From an uncultured Elusimicrobia bacterium (GTDB taxonomy: Bacteria; Elusimicrobiota; Elusimicrobia; UBA1565; UBA9628): DNA of 37,536 bases. The position numbers and the translations under genes are program-made. The stretch is taken from NCBI GenBank assembly GCA_964600165.1, contig CAZRIP010000006.1, positions 1-37,536 on the forward strand, read 5' to 3'. This document shows positions 1 to 29,427 of this stretch, one piece after another; position 1 is the first letter of the stretch, and each line of letters begins with the position of its first letter. A model generated the notes under the pieces. It did no database searches, was not told where the DNA came from, and saw only the letters and a list, made by a program, of their open reading frames with translations.

Positions 1-760
1 GCGAGAGCAGGTCGCCGCCGTGGCTGACGGCGACGAGCATGTTCGGGCGGATCGCCGCCGCGTGGATGTCGCCGTCGATCACGTCCTTCAACGCGCCGCC
101 CGACTCGCCCCAAGCCGCTTGGTTTTCCGGCGTGACGAACCAGAATTTCTCGTTGAAGGAGGCTTTCGCGCGATCGGCGAGCCCGTCGAGCTCGGCGTCG
201 CCGGTGAGCCGCGCGACAAAGCGCAGGCCCGAGTACCACAAAGCGTTGATCTCGACGGCCTTGCCGTCGCGCGGCGTGACGGGCCGGTCGCGGCCCTCGG
301 GATCGGCGTCCATCCACGTCGCCTGGCGCGGGCCCGTGATGAGCCCGTCTTGATCCATGAAGATCTTGTTGAAGCGTCCGTAGCGCTCGTAGCCCGTGCC
401 CGTCGCGTAATGCTCTACGATGGAGCGCAGCGTCGGCGCGAGCTCCTCGGCGAACGCGCGGTCGCCGGTCGCCTCGACGTATTTCTTGACCGCCTGGATG
501 AACCAGAGCGAGCCGTCGATCGTGTTGTACTCGGACTTTCCATCCGGGAAGATGCGGTTGGGGATCAGGCCGTCTTTTTCGAAGCGCGCGAAGCGGCGCA
601 GGCTCTCCTTGGCGTCGGCGTAGCGGCCCGTCGTGAGCAGCAGGCCCGGCAGCGAGACGAACGTGTCGCGGCCCCATTCTTCAAGGAACCAGTCCATGCT
701 CGCGGCCCAGATCTCGACCGACCCGCGCTCCTCATGGACAAATCGCGCCGCCGCGGCCTC
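1..760 (-). other. GDE_C / amylo-alpha-1,6-glucosidase-like domain (truncated by the window edge) inside the giant ORF
   Basis: Motifs typical of bacterial and archaeal glycogen-debranching GDE_C proteins: DWFLEEWGRDTFVSLPGLLLTTGRY, GLIPNRIFPDGKSEYNTIDGSLWFIQAV, WMDADPEGRDRPVTPRDGKAVEINALWY. Confidence 0.7.
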
Positions 761-3700
761 GAACGCGCCGAGCGCCGCCGACGGAGCCGCCCAGACGTCC
801 CCGTCGCGCAGCGCTCGATAGGCGCCGAGCTGCGCGCGGCGGTCGTCGCGGACGCGGCTCGAGACGTCGGGATCGCTCGGCAGCGGGATCCGGTAGCGCC
901 AGTACGATTTCCCGTCGCGCACTTCCTTGACCGGGAACGGATCGCCCCACTGGTCGCCGAGCGTGTACGCCGCGAAGACGGCCGAGCGGCCGTTGCCGGC
1001 GGGGCCCGCCGCGTCCATGAAGCGCCACGAGAAGCCCGGCGACCGGGGATCGTCGTGGCCGCTCACGCTGCGCCACTGGCCCTTGATCGTCACGAAGCCC
1101 AGGCGCTCGGCGTCGCCGCCCTTGCCCTCGAAAGCCTCGGCGACCGGCAGCGCGCCGGTCGGCTCGAAGACGGCGCGCAGCGCGCGCACGTAGTCGTCGC
1201 CCTTCTCGTCGCCGCTGGCGAGCTGGCCGTTGCCGAAATTGTAGGCGAAGTGCAGCGCGTCGGCGCGCGCGCCGTCGAAGCCGAACGAAAGCCAATGCTT
1301 GAAAGGCTCGACCGCGGGCCGGTAGCCTTCCTGCTGCAGCCGCGTCCAATCCCACAGCGCGAGATCGCCCCAATCCTCGTGCACCCATTGATTGACGACG
1401 CCGGGATTGCGGGTCTTCAAGTCCTTGAAGTATTGAGGATTCTTCCAGGCGTCGACGCCGTCCTTGGCCCGGAACATCGGGATGTCGAAGATCACCTTGC
1501 CGCCGTCGCGGTGGACCTCGTCGAGCGCGTCCTTGAGCTGCGCGTACGCGAGCCACTGGGCGAAGCGGCGGCGCGCGACGAGCCCCGCGAAGCGCGGATC
1601 GCCGCGCGAGCGCTCGACATCTTGCGGCTGCCACTGCGGCGCGGGCTTGCCGATGAGATCGGAGAGGGCCATGAACGCGGCGTAATCGTCGAGCCAGTAT
1701 GAATTCTCCGAGATGAAGGCTCGCAGAGCCGCGCCGCGCAGCGAGCCTTGATCGAATCTCCGCCATGCCGCGTCGGCGACCTCGGTCTCTCTCGCGCGCA
1801 CGGCGTCGTAATGGACGCTTTGGCGCTCGTCGAGGCTCGGAGCCGCGAGCTTCGCGAGGAGCGCCGGATCCGCGGCCACCTCGTCGACCTTCGCCCAGTC
1901 GACGTAATCCTCGTTGAGGGCGTAGAGGCTGACCGGAGCGTACGGGCTTTCCGCCTTGACCGCGAAGTGCGGGAGCAAATGAACGATCGACGCGCCTTCT
2001 TTCTTCAAGTCATCCCGATAATAGGGCCCGAGGTCCGTGAACTTGCCGACGCCCGGGTCGCCCTCGGCGCGGCGCAGCGCGTAAACGGGCAGCGTCACGG
2101 CCGATTGAAATTGAGAGGGATCGCGCCACCAAGAATCCCGCGGGACGACGGGCGCGGCGCTCTCGGCGTTCGCAAGAAGGGCCGTGGCAAGACCGGCCGC
2201 CTTGACGCCGTTCCAGAGAGAGCGCTTGGAGACGGCCGGGCCGCCGCCCTGAACGCGCTGGCGCGCCTCTTGCGCGAGCTCGCCCGCCTCGGCGGCGACG
2301 CGCGCCGGATCCGCGAGCCGCGCGGCGAGCAGCTCCCGCGCCTTCGCGGCGTCGACGAAGAGTCCCCCGCCGGCGTCGCGTCCCGAGGCGCCGGGCAGCG
2401 GCTCGAGAGTCTGGCGGACCAAGTTGCTCAGGTAGAGGAACCAGCCCGCGGGCAGCGGGCCCGCGGACGCGAAGCGCTCCGTCAGCGCCGCCAGTTTCTC
2501 GGCGCTGCCGCGCGCGGCCGCGCCCGTGCCGACCTTGGCGTTCTCGGGCGCGTCGGGATCGAGGGCCAGCTCGTCGACGAGATCGGACCAGGAGGCGGCG
2601 CGCCCGTCGCGGCCCGAGCGGCCCGAGTAGAACTGCAAGCCGGTGTCCTTGCCCGCCGCCGCGACGACGACGGGCAGCGCCGCGTCCGCCGGGGCCGCGA
2701 GCGTGCGCTCGCCCGGGCCCTCGTTGCCGGAGCCCGCGACGACGCCGACGTCGCTCAGCACGAGTCGATCGACGAGCCGCGAAAGCAGAGAAGGCGCGGA
2801 GGGATCGCTCAGCGACGCAGGCGCGCCGACCTCGATCGAGACGATCAGCGGCTGCTTCAGGGGATCGCGCGACGCCGCGAGCTTCTCGAGCCGCGCCGCC
2901 ACGGCGGCTTCCGAGATCCCGGTCTGCGTCGTGACGCGCTCGAGGAAAGGAGACGTGGACGGCTCGGGCTTCGAGCTCGGTGAAAGCGTATAGAGCGGCC
3001 GCGCGGCCGACGGCGTCAGGCCCAGCTTGCGCGCGGCGATCGAGAACGCGAAGAGCTTGTGCTCCGGCACGCTGATCCAGACCGCGCCGGAGAGCGGCAT
3101 GACGGCGCGCACCGTGCCTTCGAAGCGGGCGACGGCGGCCGCGAGCTCGGCGCCGATCAAAGGAGCGGCCTCCGCCTGCGGCTGGGAGTCGTCCCAGTAG
3201 CGCGGCGCGGCGGACGAAGGCGGCAGCGCGAGCAGAAGATCGACGGGCCCGAGCGCGGCGTCGACGCCCGCCACGCCGCGCCCCGACGGGTCCGGCACCG
3301 GAGTCGGCATGTCGAGCGGGACGTCCAGCGTCCGCGCGAGAAGATTGACGAGATCGCCCAGCGCTCCCGGCTGCTCGACGGCGGCCTTGTGCTTGAGCAC
3401 GAAGACGGTCGCCGTCGTCCTCAACGGCTCGCGGCTCAGCCGCTCGCGGACCGACTTGTCCTTGAGGGCGGCCGGGAAGAAGCGGTAGGCCGTGCGCGTG
3501 AGCGCGAGGTCGTCCATGCCGCTCGCGTTGAGCAGGTCCTCGATGACCTTGTCGCTGATCGCGGCCGGGGCGTCCGAGGCGACGTGGAAGAGCGACGCCG
3601 CCGCGAGGTGCCGGATGTTCTCGCGCTCCTTGAGATCGGCCACCTTGGCGGAAAGCAGCTCGGCGTCGGACGTCTCGGCGCGCGCGCCGAGCTCGCCCAG

Positions 3701-6700
3701 CAGCGCCGCGGCCGTATAGCGAGCGTACTTGTCGGGATTGGCGGCCTCCTTGGCGACGCGCGCGACGCCGCCGCGATCGCCGTGCCGCGCGAGCGCGTAC
3801 GCCGCGTAGACGCCGACGTCCCAGCGCGGGTCGGCCGCCGCTTTCTGCAGCAGCGCGTCGACGGCCCGGCCGGGGATCTCCGCCAGCGCGAGGAACGCGG
3901 CCTGACGGACCCGCGCGTCGGGATCGTTCAAAGCCGCCTCGCCGAGAACGAGAGCGGATTCCGGGGCCTTCAGATTCATCAGCGTGAAAGCCGCCTGGAA
4001 CCGGACCAGCCAGACGTCGTCCTTGAGCGCTTGCAGCAAGCCCGGCAGCGCGGCTTGGCGCTGCGCGGCGAAGCGCTTGACCTTTTCGGCGTACGCGGCG
4101 TCGCCCTGCTGGCGGCGCTGCTCGTCGCTCGTCTCGTCGTCCTCGTCGGCCGAGGAGTCCCCGTCGAAATGGGAGGCCGGGTCCGGTTTGGGGATCTCGA
4201 TCCCCTCGTAAGCCTTGTCCTCGAGGTCGAGCACCGCCTTGTAGCGCTCGAGCCACGCGAGCGCCTCCGGCTTGACCTTCGGCAGCGTCCAACCGAGCCC
4301 CGGGAGCCGCCCCGCGCGCAGCCGCAGCGCCGAGACGTCGTCGCCGAAGATCAGCTTCATCGCGGCCATGCCGCTGCCGACGCCCGCGCCCTGGCGTTGG
4401 ATCGGCAGCCCGAGATCGGTCGACGCGCGCATCGCGATCGCGTCCGTGACGAGCGGCAGGTTCTCGAAAACGAAGCTTCCGGGCGTGTAAAGTCCGGCCA
4501 GCTTCAAGGCCTTCTTGATGAGCGCCTGGTCCGCCGCGTCGCCCGGCGCGGCCATCGACGTGCCGGACATGCCCGTGTATTTGCGGTCGTTCGTGTCGGA
4601 CGGAGTCGGCGCCATGTCCTTGGACTTGACCGAGACGACGCCCCGCTTGTAGACGTTCGGGTCGCCGGGATCGGTGACGACGTCGCCGCCTTTCCACAAG
4701 CCGTGCGGGAAGAGATAAACGCGCCGGATCGGGTAGCGCCGGTCGAGCGAGAAGCCGACCGAGCTGAAGAACGGGATCTCCCACTTCTTGTCGTCGGGCG
4801 CGACGACGACCGCGCCGACGGAGCGCACGAAGCGGCCGGCGGCCGGCTGGCTCGCCGAGTCGCGGAAAGGTCCGGCGTTGCCCGCGCTCGCCACGACGAT
4901 CGTGTACTCCCCCTTGCCGTTCTTCTTGCGCGTGAGCGCGGAGAAGAAATCCGCGAGGTTCGAGTCCGCCGTGCCGCGCTGGCCCAAGCTCATGCTGATG
5001 ACGTCGACGCCGCGCTGGAAGCCGAGGGTCGCGCCGCCCATGATGTCGCCGTCGGAGGCGCCGGGGTTGTCCTTGCCGAACACCTTGGCCATCAGCACGC
5101 GCGCGCCGCGCGCGATCCCGCGATAGACCTTGTTGAGCGAGGCGACGATGCCCGTCGTGTGCGAGCCGTGGCCGATCCAGTCCTCCGGGCCCTCGTGGAC
5201 GATGTCCAGGACCTCGACGACGCTGCGTCCGTCCGGCAGCTGAAAAGCCTCGTGCGTGGCGTCGGCGCTGGTGTCGATGACCATGACCGTGCCGTCCTCG
5301 CCGGTGACGCCGAGCTGCCAGACCGGCGGGACCTCGTGGATCTCCGCCATGTCGGTCAAGTGCAGCTTGAAATTAGCGTCCGAATGCTCGACGTCCATCG
5401 CGCTGCGCGTGACGAACTGCTTGATCTCCGCGGCTTTGCGCCGGGGGATCGTCACGTAGATCTCTTGCCGGCCTTCGTCCTCGCCCCACACGCCTTTGAT
5501 CTCGACGTCGAGCTCGTCGAACCGCTTGAGATGCTCCTCGAAGCCCGCCTCGACGAGCGCGGCGCGCGCCGCGGCGCGGGACTCGGCCGTCGCGCTCGCG
5601 TCGCCCACGGACTTCTTGATCGAATGGCCCTCCGTCGGGCGCAGCCACAGCCCGACGCGCGCCTCGGCCTTGCGCAAGACGAGGACGTGGCTGCCGTCCT
5701 CGCGATCGACGCGCGCCACGCGAAATTCGCCGCCGTCCTCCGCCTCCCAATAGCGCAGCAGCCGCTCCCAGGTCGTCACGCCGGCGTCGGCCGGCCCGAA
5801 GGACAGGAACGCCATCCCCTTGTTCTCGAGCGAGGCGTAGAGGTTGTCGACCATGGAGGCGAGCGGCATGCCCTGGAGCCTCTTGGTCGCGATCGTGCGC
5901 CAGAATTGTCGGATGCGCCGCTCGAAATCGGCCGCGGCGCGCGCGTCGCGGCGGTCGAGGCGCGAGCCGCGCCGGCTGAGCAGGAGGAACTTCGCCTCGA
6001 ACTCCGTGCCCTTGAACGCGGCGGGATTGGCCGCGCGGTCCGTGGCGAGAAGGTAGAGATTATCGAGCTGCTTGAGCGTGGCGTCGAGCTGCTGGGCCTG
6101 CTCGGAGCCGCGCGCGGGCAGAAGCGAGAACGGCTTGCCGAGGACGACGGCGCCGAACTTGCGCGCGCGCTCGGGCTTGCCGAGCTCGCTCTGCGGCTCG
6201 GCCGTCTCGATCGTCTCGACCTTGGCTTGGCCGTCGGAGAGCGCCCGGTAGATCGACTCGTCCTTGAACTCGGCGGACTCCGGGTTGACGACGAGCACTC
6301 CGAACGGCCGGCCGAGCTTGAGCGAGCTTTGCGTCTGGCGCGCGACGCGCTCGATGAGCGGGACCTTGACGTCGCGCAGCTTGGCGGCGGGGCCGAGCTC
6401 CGCGAGCCGCGCGCCGAGGTCGCGCCGCGCGCGCTCGAGGAGCGAGAAGATCGAGCCGGCCGGCGGAGGACCGCGCGAGCGGTTCTGCTTCAGGTGGTGA
6501 AGCTCGTGGACCAAGACCATGCGCCGCAAGAGCGGCGTGAAGGCGAGCTCGGGGCGCAGATAGACGGTGTCGCCCACCGCGTAGCCGAGGCCGAAGCCGC
6601 GGCCCGAGAGGTCCGGCTTGACGAGCTCGGCGACGCCGGCGTCGAGATGGCCCGCGAGGACGTCTTTTTGCAGCGCCGACTTGAGGTCGGCCGCGCGGGC

Positions 6701-7555
6701 GCCGCGGCCCTTGAATCGGGCGTAAGCATAGTAGCCCAGGTCTATCAGAGCGAGGCCGCCGAAGATCGCGCCCGCACCCGCGAACGCGCTCGCCGCCGTC
6801 GCGGCGACGACCGACAACGCGCCCACGGGATGGCCGATCGAGACCGCGGCGATGCCGACCTTGCCGAGGAAGATCGAGAGCGCGCCGACGCCGACCGCGG
6901 CCGACCCCGCGAGCGCGGCGAGCTTGGCCGGCAGGCCCGGAGAGCGGTTTTCTCGATTCGCGATTCGCCCCGCGACCGGCGAATACATACTATGGGCGCC
7001 CATAGCGTGTGCTCGCTCGTCGAGGCGGACGGAAGAAGCGGGCGGGTTGGCGACGACCGATTCACCTGCAGACGCCGCGCCCTGCTCGCCGATCTGCCGG
7101 ATGAAATCGTCCGACGCCGCGCCGCGGGCGCTGTCCCCCGCCGATTCGGCGGGCAACTGCGAAAGCACTGTCGGCGCGGCGAGGCGCTGGAGGTCGCCCG
7201 CGAACGCTTGCGCGCGCGCCGACTTCGCATCCGCCATGCGGCGGATGACGAGAGGCGCCTGCGCGCTCGCCGCAGCTTGAACGGCCGCCGCTTGGGGCGC
7301 CACGAGCGCGGCGACGGCCCAAGGCGAAAGCGAGACGTTCGCGATGGAGACGTCGACGGCAGCAAGCTTGCTCAAGTCGCCGACCGGCGCCAGCGGCGCC
7401 TGGTTGACGGGCAAAACCGGGACGACCTCGATGACGGGCGCGGAGCCCCGTCCGGTCGTCTCGGCGGCGGCGGCCTGCCAGGCTTGCGGCCCGGCCGAGG
7501 ACGCCAAAAGCGAGAGCGTCAGCAGCGACGCCGTCGCCTTGCGCAGCTTGAGCAC
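1..7555 (-). CDS. Giant secreted multidomain protein, C-terminus beyond the window (at least 2518 aa). Order of parts: signal peptide, two predicted TM helices, HExxHxxQ motif, S8 subtilase, HEAT-like repeats, degenerate S8-like segment, GH77 4-alpha-glucanotransferase, GDE_C amylo-alpha-1,6-glucosidase.
   Basis: Manual block-by-block translation of the minus strand found no stop codon from 7555 down to 1. The frame is constant and GC3 is high over most of it. The start is a GTG at 7555..7553, 7 nt after AAGGA, directly after in-frame TAA/TGA stops, and it encodes MLKLRKATASLLTLSLLASSAGPQAW, which reads as a Sec signal peptide. Recognisable motifs are VMVIDTSAD, GHGSHTTGIVAS, VVASAGNAGP and GMSGTSMAAP (S8 D/H/N/S), plus VHELHHLKQ. 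The HEAT-like stretch contains NDPDARVRQAAFLALAEIPG. The GH77 region aligns with Thermus amylomaltase blocks (YWLDDYAAFMAL, IFDIPMF, DWGDLALWDW, FGFDGARADALHF, LPVAEAFEG, GHDD). The GDE_C region contains WFLEEWGRDTFVSLPGLLLTTGRYADAKESL, GLIPNRIFPDG and WMDADPEGRDRPVTPRDGKAVEINALWY. The ORF track omits this frame only because no stop lies inside the window. Confidence 0.7.
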   Translation of the reverse strand, partial: MLKLRKATASLLTLSLLASSAGPQAWQAAAAETTGRGSAPVIEVVPVLPVNQAPLAPVGDLSKLAAVDVSIANVSLSPWAVAALVAPQAAAVQAAASAQAPLVIRRMADAKSARAQAFAGDLQRLAAPTVLSQLPAESAGDSARGAASDDFIRQIGEQGAASAGESVVANPPASSVRLDERAHAMGAHSMYSPVAGRIANRENRSPGLPAKLAALAGSAAVGVGALSIFLGKVGIAAVSIGHPVGALSVVAATAASAFAGAGAIFGGLALIDLGYYAYARFKGRGARAADLKSALQKDVLAGHLDAGVAELVKPDLSGRGFGLGYAVGDTVYLRPELAFTPLLRRMVLVHELHHLKQNRSRGPPPAGSIFSLLERARRDLGARLAELGPAAKLRDVKVPLIERVARQTQSSLKLGRPFGVLVVNPESAEFKDESIYRALSDGQAKVETIETAEPQSELGKPERARKFGAVVLGKPFSLLPARGSEQAQQLDATLKQLDNLYLLATDRAANPAAFKGTEFEAKFLLLSRRGSRLDRRDARAAADFERRIRQFWRTIATKRLQGMPLASMVDNLYASLENKGMAFLSFGPADAGVTTWERLLRYWEAEDGGEFRVARVDREDGSHVLVLRKAEARVGLWLRPTEGHSIKKSVGDASATAESRAAARAALVEAGFEEHLKRFDELDVEIKGVWGEDEGRQEIYVTIPRRKAAEIKQFVTRSAMDVEHSDANFKLHLTDMAEIHEVPPVWQLGVTGEDGTVMVIDTSADATHEAFQLPDGRSVVEVLDIVHEGPEDWIGHGSHTTGIVASLNKVYRGIARGARVLMAKVFGKDNPGASDGDIMGGATLGFQRGVDVISMSLGQRGTADSNLADFFSALTRKKNGKGEYTIVVASAGNAGPFRDSASQPAAGRFVRSVGAVVVAPDDKKWEIPFFSSVGFSLDRRYPIRRVYLFPHGLWKGGDVVTDPGDPNVYKRGVVSVKSKDMAPTPSDTNDRKYTGMSGTSMAAPGDAADQALIKKALKLAGLYTPGSFVFENLPLVTDAIAMRASTDLGLPIQRQGAGVGSGMAAMKLIFGDDVSALRLRAGRLPGLGWTLPKVKPEALAWLERYKAVLDLEDKAYEGIEIPKPDPASHFDGDSSADEDDETSDEQRRQQGDAAYAEKVKRFAAQRQAALPGLLQALKDDVWLVRFQAAFTLMNLKAPESALVLGEAALNDPDARVRQAAFLALAEIPGRAVDALLQKAAADPRWDVGVYAAYALARHGDRGGVARVAKEAANPDKYARYTAAALLGELGARAETSDAELLSAKVADLKERENIRHLAAASLFHVASDAPAAISDKVIEDLLNASGMDDLALTRTAYRFFPAALKDKSVRERLSREPLRTTATVFVLKHKAAVEQPGALGDLVNLLARTLDVPLDMPTPVPDPSGRGVAGVDAALGPVDLLLALPPSSAAPRYWDDSQPQAEAAPLIGAELAAAVARFEGTVRAVMPLSGAVWISVPEHKLFAFSIAARKLGLTPSAARPLYTLSPSSKPEPSTSPFLERVTTQTGISEAAVAARLEKLAASRDPLKQPLIVSIEVGAPASLSDPSAPSLLSRLVDRLVLSDVGVVAGSGNEGPGERTLAAPADAALPVVVAAAGKDTGLQFYSGRSGRDGRAASWSDLVDELALDPDAPENAKVGTGAAARGSAEKLAALTERFASAGPLPAGWFLYLSNLVRQTLEPLPGASGRDAGGGLFVDAAKARELLAARLADPARVAAEAGELAQEARQRVQGGGPAVSKRSLWNGVKAAGLATALLANAESAAPVVPRDSWWRDPSQFQSAVTLPVYALRRAEGDPGVGKFTDLGPYYRDDLKKEGASIVHLLPHFAVKAESPYAPVSLYALNEDYVDWAKVDEVAADPALLAKLAAPSLDERQSVHYDAVRARETEVADAAWRRFDQGSLRGAALRAFISENSYWLDDYAAFMALSDLIGKPAPQWQPQDVERSRGDPRFAGLVARRRFAQWLAYAQLKDALDEVHRDGGKVIFDIPMFRAKDGVDAWKNPQYFKDLKTRNPGVVNQWVHEDWGDLALWDWTRLQQEGYRPAVEPFKHWLSFGFDGARADALHFAYNFGNGQLASGDEKGDDYVRALRAVFEPTGALPVAEAFEGKGGDAERLGFVTIKGQWRSVSGHDDPRSPGFSWRFMDAAGPAGNGRSAVFAAYTLGDQWGDPFPVKEVRDGKSYWRYRIPLPSDPDVSSRVRDDRRAQLGAYRALRDGDVWAAPSAALGAFEAAAARFVHEERGSVEIWAASMDWFLEEWGRDTFVSLPGLLLTTGRYADAKESLRRFARFEKDGLIPNRIFPDGKSEYNTIDGSLWFIQAVKKYVEATGDRAFAEELAPTLRSIVEHYATGTGYERYGRFNKIFMDQDGLITGPRQATWMDADPEGRDRPVTPRDGKAVEINALWYSGLRFVARLTGDAELDGLADRAKASFNEKFWFVTPENQAAWGESGGALKDVIDGDIHAAAIRPNMLVAVSHGGDLLS
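1000..2110 (-). other. GH77 4-alpha-glucanotransferase (amylomaltase-like) domain inside the giant ORF
   Basis: Collinear similarity to Thermus aquaticus amylomaltase blocks, as recalled from memory: LPVYALRRAEGDPGVGKF..LPHF, YWLDDYAAFMALSD, QWLAYAQLKDALDEVH..IFDIPMF, DWGDLALWDW, FGFDGARAD (putative nucleophile Asp at 1276..1274), LPVAEAFEG, SGHDD. Confidence 0.75.
3400..4040 (-). other. HEAT / PBS-lyase-like repeat region inside the giant ORF
   Basis: Repeated helical units of the form DPDARVRQAAFLALAEIPGRAVDALLQKAAADPRWDVGVYAAYALARHGD and similar, preceded by an acidic linker (DEDDETSDEQRRQQ). Confidence 0.55.
4480..5300 (-). other. Peptidase S8 (subtilisin-like) catalytic domain inside the giant ORF
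   Basis: Catalytic Asp is in VIDTSAD (codon 5275..5273). Catalytic His is in GHGSH (5170..5168). Oxyanion Asn region is SAGNAGP (around 4885). Catalytic Ser is in GTSMAAP (4558..4556). The order D-H-N-S matches subtilases. Confidence 0.8.
6494..6508 (-). other. HExxH (HELHH, then KQ) putative zinc-binding motif after the TM pair in the giant ORF; resembles DUF4157-type HExxHxxQ
   Basis: Translation ...LRPELAFTPLLRRMVLVHELHHLKQNR. There is no further Zn-ligand evidence, so the metallopeptidase assignment is tentative. Confidence 0.35.
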
Positions 7556-17743: not shown

Positions 17744-17772
17744 CAGTATAGTCGAACTCTTGTTCGATGTCA
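17744..17772 (-). promoter_or_regulatory. lexA promoter with the LexA (SOS/Cheo-type) box TCGAAC-N4-GTTCGA filling the spacer between a perfect -35 TTGACA and a -10 TATACT
   Basis: Minus-strand reading gggtaTTGACA tcgaacaagagttcgac TATACT ...gagaggagg..ATG. Box at 17751..17766, -35 at 17767..17772, -10 at 17744..17749. Confidence 0.8.
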
Positions 17773-17832
17773 ATACCCCGAGGGTCCGCCGTAAAAACAG
17801 CTCAGGCGGCAGCAGGCGCAGCCGTTCGGGCG

Positions 17833-18804
17833 CTAGCCGATTTTCTCGCCGCAGCCCGAGCAGAACTTCGCGTCGGCCGCCAGCTCCTTGGCGCACTTGG
17901 CGCACTTGACCATGGCGGCGCCGCCCTTGTTGATGCTGCCCATGGCGTTGGCGAGCATATTGCCGATGCCGCCGCCGGCGCCCAGGCCCACGCCCAAGCC
18001 CACGCCCATGCCGGTGATGCCGCCCGCGCCTCCCTCGTTCGAGGCCGCCTTGTCGAGGACGTCGAAGGTGCGCATCTTGTCGTAGCCCGAGCCGAGGATG
18101 TCGAGCTGCGCCTTCTGCGCGAGAGCGGCCTTGAGCTTTTGGACCGACGGGTCCTCGTCGGGCACGTCGATCGAGGCCACGAAGAAGTTCACGAGCTCGA
18201 CGCCGAACTTACCGAAGTCCGGGGCGAGCTTGCCTTTGATGCCCTCGGAGATCTCATCGAGCTTGGCCGAGACCTCGAGCAACGTGATCTTGCCGTCTAC
18301 GATGGTGCGCGAGATGTAGTCCTTGATGCGCGACATCAGCGCGCCTTTGTAGAGCTCGGTGAGCGCTTCGACCGTGAACTCGCCGCGTTGGGCCGACAGC
18401 TGCGTGAAGACTTGGCGCGAGTCGGCGACGCGGACGGCGAACTGGCCGAACGCGCGCACCGGCAGCGCGACTTTATAGACGGGGTCCAACAGCGGGATCG
18501 GGTTGGTCGTGCCCCACTTCACGTCCATGTGCACGGCCTTATTGATGAAATACGCCTCGGCCGCGAAGGGCGTCTGGCCGCCGAACGGCGCTTTGATGAG
18601 GCCCTTCAAAAGCGGGATGTTCGCCGTCTTGAGCGTGTGCGTCCCCGGGCCGAGGACGTCGGCGATCTGGCCCCCCGAGAGGAAGATGACCTCTTGCGTC
18701 TGGTTGACGATCACCTGCGTGCCCCACGTCAGGTCGTCGCCCGGAACGCGCCAGATCAACACGTCAATGGGACCGTCGTATTTGAGAACCTCGATGATCG
18801 CCAT
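17833..18804 (-). CDS. SPFH/band-7 domain protein with C-terminal Gly-rich region and zinc ribbon (B. subtilis YdjI-like)
   Basis: Collinear similarity to YdjI (VLKYDGPIDVLIWRVPGDDL..., Gly-rich linker, CAKCAKEL...CSGCGEKIG). Confidence 0.8.
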   Translation of the reverse strand: MAIIEVLKYDGPIDVLIWRVPGDDLTWGTQVIVNQTQEVIFLSGGQIADVLGPGTHTLKTANIPLLKGLIKAPFGGQTPFAAEAYFINKAVHMDVKWGTTNPIPLLDPVYKVALPVRAFGQFAVRVADSRQVFTQLSAQRGEFTVEALTELYKGALMSRIKDYISRTIVDGKITLLEVSAKLDEISEGIKGKLAPDFGKFGVELVNFFVASIDVPDEDPSVQKLKAALAQKAQLDILGSGYDKMRTFDVLDKAASNEGGAGGITGMGVGLGVGLGAGGGIGNMLANAMGSINKGGAAMVKCAKCAKELAADAKFCSGCGEKIG

Positions 18805-18834
18805 GTTCGGTATTCCCCCTATGCCGTGACTCTC

Positions 18835-18863
18835 AATATAGCCCCGGTTCTATGCGTTGTCAA
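18835..18863 (-). promoter_or_regulatory. Promoter of the SPFH gene (-35 TTGACA, 17-nt spacer, -10 TATATT) embedded in the last codons of the upstream gene
   Basis: Minus strand gtTGACAacgcatagaaccggggcTATATTgagag...aggggga...ATG. Confidence 0.55.
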
Positions 18864-20793
18864 CCCTCGGCCGCACGCCGCGGGCCAGCGCCTCCTTGGC
18901 GCGCTGATAGGCGTCCTGGCGCTCGTGGTCGATCCAATGGCCGATCTGCTCGGGCGTCAGGCCGACTTTCTGGCCGAAAGTGTCGAGCGCGCGGCGCTCA
19001 CCCGCGGCGACGCGCCCGTCCGCCAGGCACATCTGCACGATCCCCCGCAGCACGGCCTCGGCCTCCTCGCGCGACTTGGGGGCGGGGCAGTCGAGCTGGC
19101 CGCGCCGCGCGGCCGCCACGAGCTCGTCCATGCGGTCGAGCGGCACGCCGCGGCGATTGGCCACTTCCTCTATAAGACGCCTTTCCTCGGGCGCGACGTC
19201 TCCATCCGCGACCATCGCCGACGCGAGAACCGCCACCGCGTCCGAAGGAGAAAGATTCGAGGACCACGACAAATCGAAGTCGCCCGCCTGCTTGACGCCG
19301 ACCTCGGGCCTCTTCCAGAGCCCGATCGGCACGACGGCGCGCACGACCCAGGACAGCTTGCCGTCGTTCAAGGCCGTTTGGCAGTAATCGCAGCTCTCTT
19401 GGTCGCGGCGCCAAGTCGCCGCGCCGCAGTTGGGGCAGCGCAAGGAGCGCAAGCCGGAGCGCGGGTCGGTCTTTGCTCCGATCTGCCGGCCCAGGACGAC
19501 GACATGCTGGCGCTCGGCTTGCCCGCGCTCGGCGTAGCTCGCGCCGTTCCAGTCGAACCAGACGCCTGACCATTTGACGAGGACGTGGGCATGCTGCCAC
19601 TTCTCGCCGTCGTCGGCGACGGCCAGGACCTGCGAGCCGCCGACGGCGACGCCGCGATAATAAGGAGCCTTTTGCGCGATCTGAAGCCCGAAGGTGTCGA
19701 GAAAATCCGGCGGCGCCATGCACTTGAGCGGCGCGACGTCGTGGTTCGAAAGCGCCTGCTGCCAGCGCCAGAACGCCACGGCGCCGCGCTCCTCGAGGAA
19801 CTGGACGTTGAGGTCCGGGTCGGCCTCGGTCGCGGAGACCAGGCCCGGCACCTCCAGCTCCGGATCGCGCGGCGTCCACTCGCAAGCTTGCGTGATCTCG
19901 CTCAAGACCCAGTCGAACTCGCCGGTGTTGACCCAGGACTTGCACTGGTCGCAGCGCGCGGCGTCGAGCAGCGGCAACGGCGCGCCGCAGTTCGGGCAGC
20001 AGCCTTCGATCAACCCCGGCCGGCCCAAGGTCTTCGCGCCGGGCCGGCGCAGGAACGTCCAGACTTCCTCGAACTCCGCCGGCGTCGAGGAGCCGCCCGA
20101 GACGCTCCCGTCCTTGTCGAAGTCCTGGTCGACCGCCGAGGCCCTCACGCGCACGTGCAGCGCGTCGAAATGCTGGTCGGACTCGACCTCGAGGATCTCG
20201 CTGTCGAGGATCCGAACCTGATCGACCTTGTTGCGCTTGCCGTCGGCCTGGTTCATCTCGAGCTGGATCGCGAAGCGCACCATCACGCCGTCGGAGACGA
20301 AGGAGCGCGCCGGAGTCATGTCGCCCGCGCTCCAGGCCTGCTGGATCTTCAAGAACGCTTTCTGGGCGCGGGAGAGAAACCCCGTCGCGTCGAAGAGCGG
20401 GTCGCGCGCCTTGAGCTGGCCCAGGTTCTTGGCCATGTCGTGGTGGTCTTGCATCTCGAGGCCGTCGGCGATCACGCCGCCCTTGTAGCGGTCGACGCCG
20501 ACGTTGCCGCCCTGGTAAAAAAGATAAAGGAGGAAGAGCGTCACCGGGATGCCGCCGACCGGATGGGCGACGACCATCTCGATGTAGAGGACGATCAATT
20601 GGCCGACGAAGAAGTCGCCGCCGGAGGAAGAATACGACGACCCGCCGTAAGAACTCCCTCCCGAGTAGCCGGAGTAGCCGCCCGAATGCGAGCCGCCCGA
20701 GTAGGATTGGCCGCCGCCGGCGCGCGCGTGGACCAGCAGCGGAAGCGCGGTTAAAGCGACGAGGATGGCGAGAACGCGAAGGGCCCGGCGCAT
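18850..20793 (-). CDS. Membrane protein with two Tim44-like domains, two Cys4 zinc ribbons and a C-terminal TerB-like domain; N-terminal Gly/Ser/Tyr-rich low-complexity segment
   Basis: Start is probably the ATG at 20793 (MRRALRVLAILVALTALPLLVHA). The track start at 20955 would overlap the upstream gene with Arg-rich junk. Motifs CPNCGAP..CDQC and CPNCGAAT..CDYC. The C-terminus reads as TerB-like (AVLASAMVADGDVAPEERRLIEEVA ... LRGIVQMCLADGRVAAGERRALDTFGQKVG). Confidence 0.65.
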   Translation of the reverse strand: MRRALRVLAILVALTALPLLVHARAGGGQSYSGGSHSGGYSGYSGGSSYGGSSYSSSGGDFFVGQLIVLYIEMVVAHPVGGIPVTLFLLYLFYQGGNVGVDRYKGGVIADGLEMQDHHDMAKNLGQLKARDPLFDATGFLSRAQKAFLKIQQAWSAGDMTPARSFVSDGVMVRFAIQLEMNQADGKRNKVDQVRILDSEILEVESDQHFDALHVRVRASAVDQDFDKDGSVSGGSSTPAEFEEVWTFLRRPGAKTLGRPGLIEGCCPNCGAPLPLLDAARCDQCKSWVNTGEFDWVLSEITQACEWTPRDPELEVPGLVSATEADPDLNVQFLEERGAVAFWRWQQALSNHDVAPLKCMAPPDFLDTFGLQIAQKAPYYRGVAVGGSQVLAVADDGEKWQHAHVLVKWSGVWFDWNGASYAERGQAERQHVVVLGRQIGAKTDPRSGLRSLRCPNCGAATWRRDQESCDYCQTALNDGKLSWVVRAVVPIGLWKRPEVGVKQAGDFDLSWSSNLSPSDAVAVLASAMVADGDVAPEERRLIEEVANRRGVPLDRMDELVAAARRGQLDCPAPKSREEAEAVLRGIVQMCLADGRVAAGERRALDTFGQKVGLTPEQIGHWIDHERQDAYQRAKEALARGVRPRVDNA

Positions 20794-20845
20794 CCCCGGG
20801 AGTTTAGCCCCCGCTTTCGCGCTTGTCAACGGCGGGAGAAATCGT

Positions 20846-21397
20846 CTACTGGCCCTCGCCCTGCGGACCGCCTTGGCCGTCGCCGCCTTGATCCGGAGTC
20901 TTGCTTCCGGCCGGAGCCTTGCCGTCGTCACCCGGCGCCGACATCTTCCCGCCATCCGCGCCCTTCTTGGCGCGGCGCGGCGCGATCTTGGCCAACTTCT
21001 GCCGGCAGGCCTCGGAAGCCTGGTCCTTGTGCTCTTTCATGCAGTCGCCGAGCATGCCGCCGCCGGCCTTCATGCCGGGACAGAGCTTGGCGGCGTCCGC
21101 CTCGCAAGGGTCGGTCATGGTATGCGCCTTAACCTTGCCGACCGCTATTTTCCCCATCTTGGAGCGGCACTCCGCGGAAACTTCCTTCTTGTGCTCGTTC
21201 ATGCAGGGGGCGAACTTGCCGTCGCCCGGATGCATGCCGGGGCAGAGCTTCTCGGCGTCCTGCTTGCAGGGGCCGGCGTCGGCCTGCGGCAAAGGCGTGG
21301 GGTGTTGATTCTCGCCGTCTCCTTCATTGGCCAGGCACGGGCCGGCGATAAAAACGCAAAAGGCGAGCGCGAGCGCGGCGAGCAGGGATTTCTTCAT
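20846..21397 (-). CDS. Secreted Cys-rich tandem-repeat protein with a Gly/Asp-rich tail
   Basis: Signal peptide MKKSLLAALALAFCVFIAGPCLA. Two ~38-aa repeats, each with 4 Cys: PCKQDAEKLCPGMHPGDGKFAPCMNEHKKEVSAECRSKM and PCEADAAKLCPGMKAGGGMLGDCMKEHKDQASEACRQKL. Confidence 0.7.
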   Translation of the reverse strand: MKKSLLAALALAFCVFIAGPCLANEGDGENQHPTPLPQADAGPCKQDAEKLCPGMHPGDGKFAPCMNEHKKEVSAECRSKMGKIAVGKVKAHTMTDPCEADAAKLCPGMKAGGGMLGDCMKEHKDQASEACRQKLAKIAPRRAKKGADGGKMSAPGDDGKAPAGSKTPDQGGDGQGGPQGEGQ

Positions 21398-21403
21398 TTC
21401 CGG

Positions 21404-21432
21404 ATTATAGCGGGAGGGCGGCCGGCGCGCAA
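21404..21432 (-). promoter_or_regulatory. Leaderless-type promoter of the Cys-rich gene (-35 TTGCGC, 17 nt, perfect -10 TATAAT, 6 nt, ATG)
   Basis: Minus strand TTGCGCgccggccgccctcccgcTATAATccggaaATG. Confidence 0.55.
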
Positions 21433-21442
21433 GACGTTTCGT

Positions 21443-22051
21443 TCACCGCGCGGCGATGAGCCAAACGCGGCCCGAGTGGACCGTCAGCGCCGGGCGCGCC
21501 GCGGCGACGTTCGACAACCCGCGGCTGCCGGCCGAGAGCGAGAACGACTTGAGCCGATATTTGACTCCCGCCAGCGTCACGCGCGCCTTCGGCGCGGCCA
21601 GGACGGAGAACGTCTCGCCCGCCCGCGCGAAGCGCGCGTATTTCCCGGGGCCCAGCAATCGCGCCGCGCCGCGGTCGAGAACGACGAGCTCGAGCGCGCC
21701 CGCGTATTTTTCGATCAGCGCCAGGTTGACGAGCGCGTGGTCGACGCGCCCGCCGAGCGCGGCGGCGACGAAGGCCGTGCGAAATCCCGCGTCGAGCGCG
21801 AAACGCAGCGCCTTTTCAAAATCGGACGTCGCTTCGTCGAAGTCGCACGAGTAAGCCCGCGCCGCCTTCTTCGGCAGCGGCCGCGGCAATGAGTCCATGT
21901 CGCCGATCACGACGTCGGCCGTGAGCCCCAGCGTGCGCGCGTGGCGCAGGCCGCCGTCGGAGCAGAGCACGGCGCGCACTCCGCGCGACGCCCTGCGCGC
22001 GAGCGCGGCGTCGCCGAGCTCGCCGTTGAGAAGGATCAGGCAGGCGCTCAT
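21443..22051 (-). CDS. Thiamine pyrophosphokinase
   Basis: Only the C-terminal 203 aa of the track ORF look coding (MSACLILLNGELGD...DSLP...); the rest is antisense junk. The ATG overlaps the stop of the CDF gene in an ATGA overlap. Confidence 0.65.
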   Translation of the reverse strand: MSACLILLNGELGDAALARRASRGVRAVLCSDGGLRHARTLGLTADVVIGDMDSLPRPLPKKAARAYSCDFDEATSDFEKALRFALDAGFRTAFVAAALGGRVDHALVNLALIEKYAGALELVVLDRGAARLLGPGKYARFARAGETFSVLAAPKARVTLAGVKYRLKSFSLSAGSRGLSNVAAARPALTVHSGRVWLIAAR

Positions 22052-26005: not shown

Positions 26006-26665
26006 GTGATCCCTCTGCGCGACAACGTCCCGCGCAGGACTTTCCCCGCGATGACCTTCGGCCTCGTGGCCGCCAACGCCTGGGTGTTTTTCCAGGAGCT
26101 CGCTCTCGGCCGCAAGCTCGACCGCTTCATCATGACGTGGGGCCTGATCCCCAAGCGCTACGCCGCCTCCGGGATGCTCGCCAAGCTCGGCGCGAAAGCC
26201 TACCTTGGGCCGTTTCTCACGTCGATGTTCCTGCACGGCGGCTGGCTTCACATCCTCTCGAACATATGGGTGCTCGTGATCTTCGGCGACAACGTCGAGG
26301 ACCGCCTCGGCCACGTCCGCTACCTGCTTTTTTATCTCGCCGCCGGCGTCGTCGCCGGCTTGAGCCAGGTCTGGGCCAGCTGGGGCTCGCCGGTGCCGAC
26401 GATCGGAGCCTCGGGCGCGATCGCGGGCGTCATGGGCGCTTTCTTCGTGCTCTATCCGCGGGCGCGCGTCGTGATGCTGGTGCCGATCTTCATATTTCTC
26501 GAAACCATTGAACTTCCCGCATATCTGTTCCTCGGGTTGTGGCTTTGGATGCAGGTCTACTCCGGAAGCCACGCGTTCGGCGGCGCGGGCGGCGTCGCCT
26601 GGTGGGCGCACGTCGGCGGCTTCGCCGGCGGGATTGTGCTGCTCGGACTTTTCTCGCTGCTTTAA
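26006..26665 (+). CDS. Rhomboid family intramembrane serine protease
   Basis: GASGAIAGVMGA holds the catalytic Ser and AHVGGFAGG the catalytic His; about 6 TM segments. GTG start 14 nt after the upstream stop. Confidence 0.85.
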   Translation: MIPLRDNVPRRTFPAMTFGLVAANAWVFFQELALGRKLDRFIMTWGLIPKRYAASGMLAKLGAKAYLGPFLTSMFLHGGWLHILSNIWVLVIFGDNVEDRLGHVRYLLFYLAAGVVAGLSQVWASWGSPVPTIGASGAIAGVMGAFFVLYPRARVVMLVPIFIFLETIELPAYLFLGLWLWMQVYSGSHAFGGAGGVAWWAHVGGFAGGIVLLGLFSLL

Positions 26666-28759: not shown

Positions 28760-29392
28760 CTAAGGACCGAACAGCGCGGCGACGTCGGGATAGCCCTTCT
28801 TGAGCGCGAGGCTCTTGGCCGTCTCTCCGTCTCGCGTGCTCGCCCCCGCCGACGCGCCGGCGGCGAGCAGCATGCGGACGGTATCGGCATGCCCGCGCTG
28901 AGCCGCCAGGATGAGCGGCGTGTCTCCCTGCGAGTCTCGCCCGTTGGACGAGGCGCCGCCGCGCATCAGGGCCTCGCAGACCTCCGTGCGGCCTTGAAGG
29001 GCGGCCCACATCAGAGGCGTCCAGCCGATCTCGTCGCGCTGCGAGACCGGCGCGCCGCCTGAGATCAGCTCGCGCACGACCTCGACGCGATTCCAGCGGG
29101 CGGCGAGGGTCAAGGGCGGCTGCCCCTTGCGGCGGGTCACGGCCGCCACGTCGGCGCCGGCCCCGAGCAAGGTCCTGACCGCGCCCGCGTGGCCGAAGGC
29201 CGCGGCGTGCATGAGCGGGGTCCAGCCGTCATCGTCGCGGGCGTTGACGTCGGCGCCGGCGGCGATGAGCCGCGAGATCCCTTCGGCGTCGCTGTCGGCC
29301 GCGGCGCGCTCGAGCTTCTGGTTGGGCGTGAGATCCGGTCCGCAGGACGCGGCGAGCGCGGCGCAAGCGAGCGCGAGGACGAGCCTCTTCAT
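28760..29392 (-). CDS. Ankyrin-repeat lipoprotein
   Basis: Lipobox LAASCG after a signal peptide and about 5 ankyrin repeats (GWTPLMHAAAFGHAGAVRTLLGAGADV...). ATG at 29392 is preferred over the track TTG at 29401 because of a leaderless-type promoter. Confidence 0.8.
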   Translation of the reverse strand: MKRLVLALACAALAASCGPDLTPNQKLERAAADSDAEGISRLIAAGADVNARDDDGWTPLMHAAAFGHAGAVRTLLGAGADVAAVTRRKGQPPLTLAARWNRVEVVRELISGGAPVSQRDEIGWTPLMWAALQGRTEVCEALMRGGASSNGRDSQGDTPLILAAQRGHADTVRMLLAAGASAGASTRDGETAKSLALKKGYPDVAALFGP

Positions 29393-29399
29393 CCTCCCC

Positions 29400-29427
29400 A
29401 ATATAACGGCCTGCGGGGATTTTTCAA
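29400..29427 (-). promoter_or_regulatory. Promoter of the ankyrin lipoprotein gene (-35 TTGAAA, 16 nt, -10 TATATT, 7 nt, ATG)
   Basis: Minus strand TTGAAAaatccccgcaggccgtTATATTggggaggATG. Confidence 0.45.

Follow-up and report, generated by a model that had tools for sequence, protein, structure and literature searches.

Genes and features of the locus

We analysed a stretch of 37,536 nucleotides (nt) from an uncultured Elusimicrobia bacterium (contig CAZRIP010000006.1; hereafter the window), with a guanine plus cytosine content of ~68% and close relatives among metagenome-assembled genomes of Elusimicrobiota. Three minus-strand genes in this window encode a Cys-rich secreted protein, a membrane protein that joins two Tim44-like domains to a C-terminal TerB domain (hereafter the anchor) and a soluble SPFH protein. 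A first-pass annotation, made from the sequence alone, had read these genes as one membrane-stress-like module beside lexA. The unit supported by comparison with related loci is a two-gene pair of Tim44–TerB and SPFH genes, found mainly in one phylum, and the anchor architecture of 647 amino acids (aa) defines a large, unnamed family for which public records provide only generic names. The features referred to below are as follows.

17745–17773, minus strand: lexA promoter, TTGACA-17-TATACT, with a Cheo-type SOS box within the spacer
17833–18804, minus strand: soluble SPFH protein, 323 aa, consisting of Band_7_1, a linker and a Cys4 zinc ribbon
18835–18863, minus strand: SPFH promoter-like site, TTGACA-17 nt-TATATT, overlapping the anchor stop codon and followed by a GGGGGA Shine–Dalgarno-like sequence
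18850–20793, minus strand: Tim44–TerB membrane protein (anchor), 647 aa, with signal peptide, Gly/Ser/Tyr segment, one span, Tim44-like domain plus zinc ribbon twice, and TerB
18943–19239, minus strand: TerB domain (Pfam TerB), aa 519–617 of the anchor, with two conserved A-D-G...E motifs
19327–19821, minus strand: Tim44-like domain 2, aa 325–489, with Cys4 ribbon 2 (C453, C456, C468, C471)
19888–20433, minus strand: Tim44-like domain 1, aa 121–302, with Cys4 ribbon 1 (C266, C269, C281, C284)
20509–20613, minus strand: hydrophobic membrane segment, aa 61–95, with a conserved P-x-x-G-x-P kink, then basic residues
20617–20718, minus strand: Gly/Ser/Tyr-rich low-complexity segment, aa 26–59, predicted non-cytoplasmic, with a predicted local distance difference test (pLDDT) score <50
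20722–20793, minus strand: signal peptide or anchor segment, aa 1–24, ending A-R-A-G-G-G, with the hydropathy peak at aa 1–27
20801–20829, minus strand: Tim44–TerB promoter-like site, TTGACA-17 nt-TAAACT, the -10 element ending 7 nt before the ATG at 20793
20846–21397, minus strand: Cys-rich secreted protein, 183 aa, encoded between the thiamine pyrophosphokinase gene and the Tim44–TerB gene
21404–21432, minus strand: Cys-rich gene promoter-like site, TTGCGC-17-TATAAT, of leaderless type, with 6 nt before the ATG at 21397

The three gene positions proposed at first pass agree with the open reading frames (ORFs) and with public gene calls on contigs that encode an identical Cys-rich protein, where products of 183 aa and 647 aa and a 323-aa Band_7_1 product are annotated, the last running beyond the end of the stretch fetched. 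The anchor start corresponds to Met55 of a longer 701-aa ORF, which gives the length of 647 aa. The accompanying domain assignments (Tim44, TerB, SPFH and zinc ribbons) were likewise upheld by hidden Markov models, an internal-duplication test and structure models, as described below.

The Tim44–TerB family comprises 688 matches in a word-indexed search, most of the listed ones 600–680 aa in length, and 1,499 cluster representatives at E ≤1e-30, and among the best 150 of these most cover almost the full length of the profile. There were 331 Tim44–TerB loci in species-representative genomes, and the 80 retained for comparison span Elusimicrobiota, Planctomycetota, Lentisphaerae/Victivallales, Kiritimatiellae, Verrucomicrobiota, Fermentibacteria, Riflebacteria and Hyd24-12. 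Haloferula luteola YC6886 also carries an anchor gene (L070), and the genome CSMAG_3030 carries two Tim44–TerB copies (L052, L063). Together with the closest relative of the window (L081, 72% identity), the retained loci formed a set of 81 that was screened for the window's neighbours and split by anchor identity into 36 loci at ≥40% and 45 more distant ones; 31 of the 36 contained enough downstream DNA to be informative. Gene prediction in related loci relied on codon usage, with the anchor gene as the training set.

Recurrence of the Tim44–TerB/SPFH pair

An SPFH gene lies downstream of the anchor gene on the same strand in 23 of the 31 informative loci, separated from it by ≤415 nt in 16 of them. 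The pair is found behind at least four different upstream genes, including the thiamine pyrophosphokinase gene, the unannotated clusters c35 and c49, and others. Look-ups starting from SPFH homologues gave a similar picture, with a Tim44-family gene upstream in six of seven cases and directly adjacent in four. In one of these look-ups the upstream 634-aa gene was verified as Tim44; in another, the SPFH gene is paired with a TerB-less 496-aa Tim44 form on a non-syntenic contig, beside an IS91 transposase gene. Two further look-ups show a gene between the pair, in one case encoding NfeD, the classical partner of SPFH proteins, and in the other an unannotated 212-aa product (L086). The latter was considered as a split-off TerB domain and rejected, as it has neither similarity nor a Pfam match. 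In three loci of the Planctomycetes–Verrucomicrobia–Chlamydiae (PVC) group (Lentisphaerae, Victivallales and Kiritimatiellae) the order is reversed, with a co-oriented Band_7_1 gene directly upstream of the anchor gene. The products of these genes score 275–303 bits, carry zinc ribbons or a GYF domain and are ~30% identical to the Elusimicrobiota SPFH proteins.

In Elusimicrobiota the pair forms part of a conserved block consisting of CysS, SpoU, a cation-efflux (CDF) gene, the thiamine pyrophosphokinase gene, the pair itself and lexA. A survey in which 76 same-strand neighbours matched 100 families revealed no other recurring family among the 25 commonest listed. The same holds for the distant anchor loci without an SPFH gene nearby, whose same-strand neighbours have no family in common. 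Fermentibacteria of the Sabulitectum type have a co-oriented PLD-like (PLDc_2) gene encoding 173–175 aa directly downstream of the Tim44–TerB gene (at ~11.3–12.3 kb in L043, L044, L046, L055, L057, L058, L073 and L074), which may reflect either lineage synteny or an alternative partner.

The Cys-rich gene is a mere neighbour of this pair and lies outside the conserved unit. Its product was predicted at first pass to be a secreted protein with two four-Cys repeats, and this description is confirmed by a signal peptide and by two repeats with the same Cys spacing of 8, 13 and 12 residues (C44/52/65/77 and C98/106/119/131), as well as by a Pfam Cys_rich_FGFR match of 32.5 bits (cut-off 22). The gene was absent from all 81 related loci screened, including the closest relative, L081, in which a different gene is upstream of the anchor gene and the SPFH gene is downstream. 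It accompanies the other two genes only on contigs with an identical protein and the same gene order, which represent one sampled lineage. Contigs recorded with this identical protein reach 65 kb, and NCBI is one of their sources. The usual order in Elusimicrobiota has the thiamine pyrophosphokinase gene abutting the anchor gene directly, which makes the Cys-rich gene look like an insertion specific to its lineage. Only eight homologues of its product were recovered among 5.8 billion proteins, one of them encoded beside hydrogenase genes. The co-occurrence across genomes that the first-pass annotation had called for thus exists for the Tim44–TerB/SPFH pair, but the three genes were never found together outside one lineage, and the proposed three-gene module falls on this point.

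Architecture of the anchor protein

The first-pass description of the 647-aa protein (signal or anchor, Gly/Ser/Tyr stretch, hydrophobic segment, two Tim44-like domains each with a ribbon, and TerB) is borne out by Pfam, by the internal duplication and by the structure model. The N-terminal hydrophobic segment ends in an [AG]R[AS]G[GN]G motif in 79 of 81 family members, and an alignment of homologues shows R24, G26 and G28 to be nearly invariant. The low-complexity segment that follows (14 Gly, 13 Ser and 5 Tyr in 35 residues) is found across the whole family.

Pfam Tim44 (PF04280) matches aa 121–254 with 91.6 bits (cut-off 29.6). Pfam makes no call for the second Tim44-like copy, which is revealed instead by the internal duplication: aa 131–300 and 325–487 align with 31% identity (E 8e-18), and the CPxCG...CxxC ribbons of the two copies are in register. 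Ribbon 2 gives a weak Zn_ribbon_3 match (18.9 bits), and all eight zinc-ribbon cysteines are invariant in 19 homologues. In the AlphaFold model (pLDDT 77) each ribbon is inserted ahead of the last strand of its Tim44-like domain. Foldseek comparison of this model with the PDB returned as best matches the human Tim44 C-terminal domain (2cw9; E 7e-5, target template modelling score 0.65), mitoribosomal mL45 and yeast Tim44, with entries including 3qk9 and 2fxt. In Tim44 and mL45, this type of NTF2 domain attaches a machine to the mitochondrial inner membrane, and Tim44-like modules elsewhere are membrane-binding modules. The corresponding NCBIfam models remained below their cut-offs (TimA, 48.8 against 200; Tim44/TimA adaptor, 67 against 80; NF033778 and NF033779).

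The C-terminal domain matches Pfam TerB (PF05099) with 29.8 bits (cut-off 24.4), rising to 63.4 bits in divergent relatives, and a precomputed TerB match is present in 68 of 120 listed homologues. Within its two motifs G531 and G593 are invariant and E537 and E599 nearly so; weaker DUF533 and DjlA matches cover the same region. A PDB sequence search with this region found no TerB structure, only chance matches. TerB-less family members exist, among them the 496-aa form mentioned above. Apparent ORFs of 761–1208 aa in the sampled loci were examined as possible natural fusions, or as cases of another domain replacing TerB, and discarded as start-codon extension artefacts, and the long database proteins of the family retain TerB with no new domain recognised.

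The anchor is predicted to have its N-terminus outside and its C-terminus inside. Its large C-terminal part would be cytoplasmic because basic residues follow the membrane span, and because it contains the Cys4 ribbons and TerB and is encoded beside a partner that lacks a signal.

The SPFH protein

The 323-aa protein matches Pfam Band_7_1 over aa 22–217 with 150.7 bits (cut-off 24). Its C-terminal CxxC...CxxC ribbon occupies aa 297–322, with the cysteines within aa 300–318, and scores slightly below the Zn_Ribbon_1 cut-off (23.4 against 25 bits); across 17 sequences no change occurs at F314, C315, C318 or G319, and the number of ribbons in homologues ranges from one to three. The Gly-rich linker at aa ~258–290 (window 17935–18033) contains a conserved glycine-zipper-like GxGMGLGMGLGAGAGMG with seven invariant glycines, and may be embedded in the membrane or rest against its surface. 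The Band_7_1 score and the conserved ribbon thus agree with the initial description of an SPFH protein with a Gly-rich linker and zinc ribbon. We take YdjI of Bacillus subtilis to be a Band_7_1 protein as well, from its InterPro membership and its described architecture. Foldseek matched the model of the window protein with probability 1.0 to stomatin, HflK/C, prohibitin, flotillin and QmcA, and a sequence search against the PDB gave marginal flotillin matches only. No 19-residue window has a hydropathy above 1.5, and the protein, having no hydrophobic segment, would need a membrane receptor.

Promoters and the neighbouring lexA gene

Over 4.8 kb there are four sigma-70-type sites close to consensus, compared with 0.3 expected, and three of them are directly upstream of the anchor, SPFH and lexA genes. 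A site of the form TTGAC(G/A)-N17-TAAACT/TACACT, placed 4–7 nt before an in-frame anchor start, was found in 23 related Elusimicrobiota-type loci (drawn from L001–L031, L045, L076 and L081), and because this spacing recurs a leaderless anchor transcript is likely. The first-pass annotation had overlooked this leaderless-type promoter while correctly placing the one of the Cys-rich gene. Anchor genes of Fermentibacteria have TGGACA-N17-TA(G/C)ACT and a leader of ~30–50 nt instead.

The separate SPFH promoter that had been proposed was also recovered. Screening for a TTGACA-type -35 element (one mismatch allowed), a 16–18 nt spacer and a TATAGT/TACAGT-type -10 element located a site 39–94 nt upstream of the start in 20 of the 24 Elusimicrobiota-type loci with the gene, the window included, and in none of the three PVC-group loci. 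The site is kept even where another gene intervenes between the anchor and SPFH genes. In L014, L018, L021 and L022, though not in the window, the spacer holds a perfect palindrome, GCCTCCG-GCG-CGGAGGC, which could be an operator or could merely reflect close relatedness.

The lexA gene (TIGR00498, 141 bits) is directly downstream of the SPFH gene in the window and in L076; elsewhere among the relatives zero to three genes separate it from the pair, and its adjacency reflects synteny within the lineage, the inserts being variable. The only perfect SOS box (CGAAC-N4-GTTCG) in the 37.5-kb window, CGAACaagaGTTCG at 17753–17766, is inside the spacer of the lexA promoter, which implies lexA autoregulation. 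At one mismatch or fewer the motif occurs at three sites in the window, with 3.4 expected, and at none near 18800–21450. SOS control of the pair was therefore rejected, the sole perfect box belonging to lexA's own promoter and none being found by the pair. The position of lexA beside the genes was thus correctly noted at first pass, but the variable distance and the lack of an SOS box before the module speak against a functional tie.

Comparison with known SPFH and Tim44 systems

The closest described parallel is the pspA–ydjGHI (samGHI) operon of B. subtilis, with which the pair was compared by description. YdjI is soluble and combines a Band-7 domain with a zinc ribbon at its C-terminus (PMC11237479, PMC8581546), YdjG consists of two zinc ribbons and an NTF2-like domain (PMC11237479), and SamG–SamH (YdjG/YdjH) recruit the cytosolic SPFH protein SamI/YdjI (PMC8581546; bioRxiv 10.64898/2026.02.06.704340). 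In this system the membrane complex both recruits the SPFH protein and is restrained by it (PMC8581546, PMC11237479, bioRxiv 10.64898/2026.02.06.704340). The window likewise encodes a soluble SPFH protein with a C-terminal ribbon beside a membrane protein of ribbons and NTF2 fold, and a low-complexity Gly-rich segment is present in both systems (in YdjH of B. subtilis and in the anchor here). The resemblance between the anchor and YdjG appears to be one of shared domain types. The order and number of domains differ, the Tim44-type NTF2 modules being duplicated with inserted ribbons and the TerB domain and Gly/Ser/Tyr tail being additional. A single anchor also stands in place of the two proteins YdjG and YdjH, and the genes of the pair have separate promoters.

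No pspA was detected in the locus or in related loci. The window genes scanned gave no Pfam PspA match, in keeping with the earlier remark that pspA is missing from the window, and phmmer with single Escherichia coli queries, a search of low sensitivity, gave no PspA or PspC match (E ≤10) among six-frame ORFs of 86 loci and the window (1.3 Mb). Neither a TPM_phosphatase gene (YdjH-like) nor TerC, TerD, TerZ or TerA occurs among the window genes scanned or the 25 commonest neighbour families listed; NfeD is likewise missing from the scanned window genes and was found in one related locus only. The suggestion of a YdjGHI-like variant therefore holds for the YdjI/SamI-type architecture of the SPFH protein and fails for the TPM (YdjH-like) partner. 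Tim44-like proteins had also been named as known partners in Psp loci; the term is unmentioned in two comparative papers on Psp, which describe YdjG.

More broadly, the pair resembles systems of an SPFH protein and a membrane partner, such as the SPFH–NfeD pairs (E. coli QmcA–YbbJ, archaeal stomatin operons) and HflK/C–FtsH, in that an SPFH-fold protein is encoded beside a membrane protein. It differs from them in that the SPFH protein has no membrane anchor of its own and the partner is neither NfeD nor a protease, and, unlike the cage-forming SPFH complexes, the SPFH protein has a glycine-zipper-like linker and zinc ribbon in place of a long C-terminal coiled coil. The architecture of the partner was not found in literature searches, which also gave no description of the pairing. 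The anchor has the NTF2-type C-terminal fold of mitochondrial Tim44, mL45 and bacterial Tim44/TimA, but here the domain is duplicated, interrupted by ribbons and fused to TerB, with no link to a translocase. Its helical C-terminal domain is like those of ter-operon TerB, DjlA and YebE (DUF533), scoring above the Pfam TerB cut-off and containing the two A-D-G...E motifs; in contrast to the ter operon and DjlA, there is no terZACDE context and no J-domain, and TerB is an optional C-terminal addition.

A proposed membrane receptor for the SPFH protein

The pair probably works under the cell membrane. In the reading that we propose, the anchor receives the SPFH protein at the membrane and organises it, and both together build a scaffold beneath the membrane for surveillance or homeostasis; this reading has about an even chance of being correct. 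The N-terminus of the anchor would be exported with its short Gly/Ser/Tyr-rich tail, and a single span would leave the remainder in the cytoplasm, where it would recruit the SPFH protein to the inner membrane face and organise it there. Such recruitment would parallel that of SamI by SamG/SamH, with a different anchor and no linked pspA. TerB could add an optional regulatory or ligand-sensing input, and the separate promoters could allow the scaffold protein to exceed the anchor in amount. On contextual evidence we infer the topology of the anchor, its physical interaction with the SPFH protein, the stress or homeostasis role and the parts played by TerB and by the separate promoters. The stronger proposal, that the anchor is the dedicated receptor of a YdjI-type SPFH scaffold and provides PspA-independent surveillance in Elusimicrobiota and some PVC bacteria, possibly acting in trans elsewhere, we consider unlikely as it stands.

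Several observations weigh against a receptor role. The anchor gene occurs without an SPFH gene, in DNA of up to 10 kb on each side, in 42 of the 45 distant loci (including those of Fermentibacteria, Planctomycetota, Riflebacteria and others), and the SPFH gene is missing from eight of the 31 informative close relatives; one Elusimicrobiota genome, SO_2017_LW4_15, has both a paired and a solo anchor copy (L013, L024). Because the pair sits within a larger conserved block, its adjacency may partly be inherited gene order, and because each gene has its own conserved promoter the two are not necessarily one operon and need not be co-transcribed. TerB is not essential to the pairing, since TerB-less forms are also paired with SPFH genes, and the SPFH model is of moderate confidence only (pLDDT 62.6).

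Much of this would be expected if the two genes were independent, their adjacency being that of a vertically inherited housekeeping block, with the anchor working alone and the SPFH protein with other partners. The block from CysS through SpoU, CDF and thiamine pyrophosphokinase to Tim44 and SPFH was seen in four look-ups, with lexA further downstream in three, and the scarcity of SPFH genes near distant anchors, the individual promoters and the otherwise heterogeneous same-strand neighbours point in the same direction. However, the pair is kept behind several different upstream genes and on a non-syntenic contig, the three PVC-group loci have it again, with the order inverted and a divergent SPFH protein, it persists with NfeD inserted in one locus, and a soluble SPFH protein needs a membrane receptor (PMC8581546). 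Independence is thus possible, although on balance rather doubtful. A system orthologous to YdjGHI/SamGHI–PspA, with pspA and a TPM/YdjH-like gene elsewhere in the genome and the SPFH protein bringing PspA to the membrane, would fit the soluble Band-7 protein with its C-terminal ribbon (PMC11237479; PMC8581546) and the zinc ribbons and NTF2 fold that the anchor shares with YdjG (PMC11237479). This explanation is less probable again, given the negative searches for PspA, PspC and TPM_phosphatase described above and the domain order and number unlike those of YdjG, with TerB and the Gly/Ser/Tyr tail as extras; moreover, the developmental role of SamI in B. subtilis is independent of PspA (bioRxiv 10.64898/2026.02.06.704340).

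On the first-pass premise that TerB marks stress or phage-defence loci, in some of which such domains would occur, the genes could be a module for phage defence or abortive infection that combines TerB, as the marker, with a membrane effector; a partial, weak PADLOC match to PDC-S48 (25.6 bits) would fit this. That match is confined to the TerB region of the anchor, and PADLOC found none for the SPFH protein or the Cys-rich protein. The flanks in the window are housekeeping genes (SMC, MltA, lexA, thiamine pyrophosphokinase, cation-efflux (CDF), SpoU, CysS, IspDF and RadA), the position is stable across the phylum, unlike that of a mobile defence island, and no nuclease, nucleoside triphosphatase or other effector gene recurs among the 25 commonest neighbour families listed, so that a defence function is very improbable. 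Barely plausible, finally, is the three-gene envelope-stress module that includes the Cys-rich protein and is tied to lexA and the SOS response. The genes are co-oriented and closely spaced, with lexA directly downstream in the window and in L076, but the distribution of the Cys-rich gene and its few homologues, the confinement of the sole perfect SOS box to lexA's own promoter and the varying distance to lexA all argue against it.

To our knowledge, bacterial Tim44-like proteins are widespread and have no assigned function, and literature searches found none; YdjI/SamI-type SPFH proteins have, as far as we know, so far been studied only in Bacillus, in the PspA operon. The recurrent pairing suggests that soluble SPFH scaffolds have a second docking route to the membrane, one that does without PspA, and yields a testable hypothesis for both families. 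Were the anchor indeed a receptor, tethering an SPFH assembly to the inner membrane would be the first function assigned to bacterial Tim44-like proteins, and the pair would mirror, in bacteria, the situation at the inner membrane of mitochondria, where Tim44 coexists with the SPFH proteins prohibitin and SLP2. Practical use is limited, and most carriers in these loci are uncultured.

Other features of the window

A giant ORF (window 2–7555, minus strand; >2518 aa) runs off the window and contains Peptidase_S8, HEAT repeats, Glyco_hydro_77 and GDE_C; it is unusual in joining a subtilase to domains for glycogen debranching (4-alpha-glucanotransferase and amylo-alpha-1,6-glucosidase). An ankyrin-repeat protein (Ank_2, 173 bits) and a rhomboid protease are encoded at 28760–29401 (minus strand) and 26006–26665 (plus strand), respectively, a few kb from the pair and amid the housekeeping genes CysS, IspDF, RadA and MlaD.

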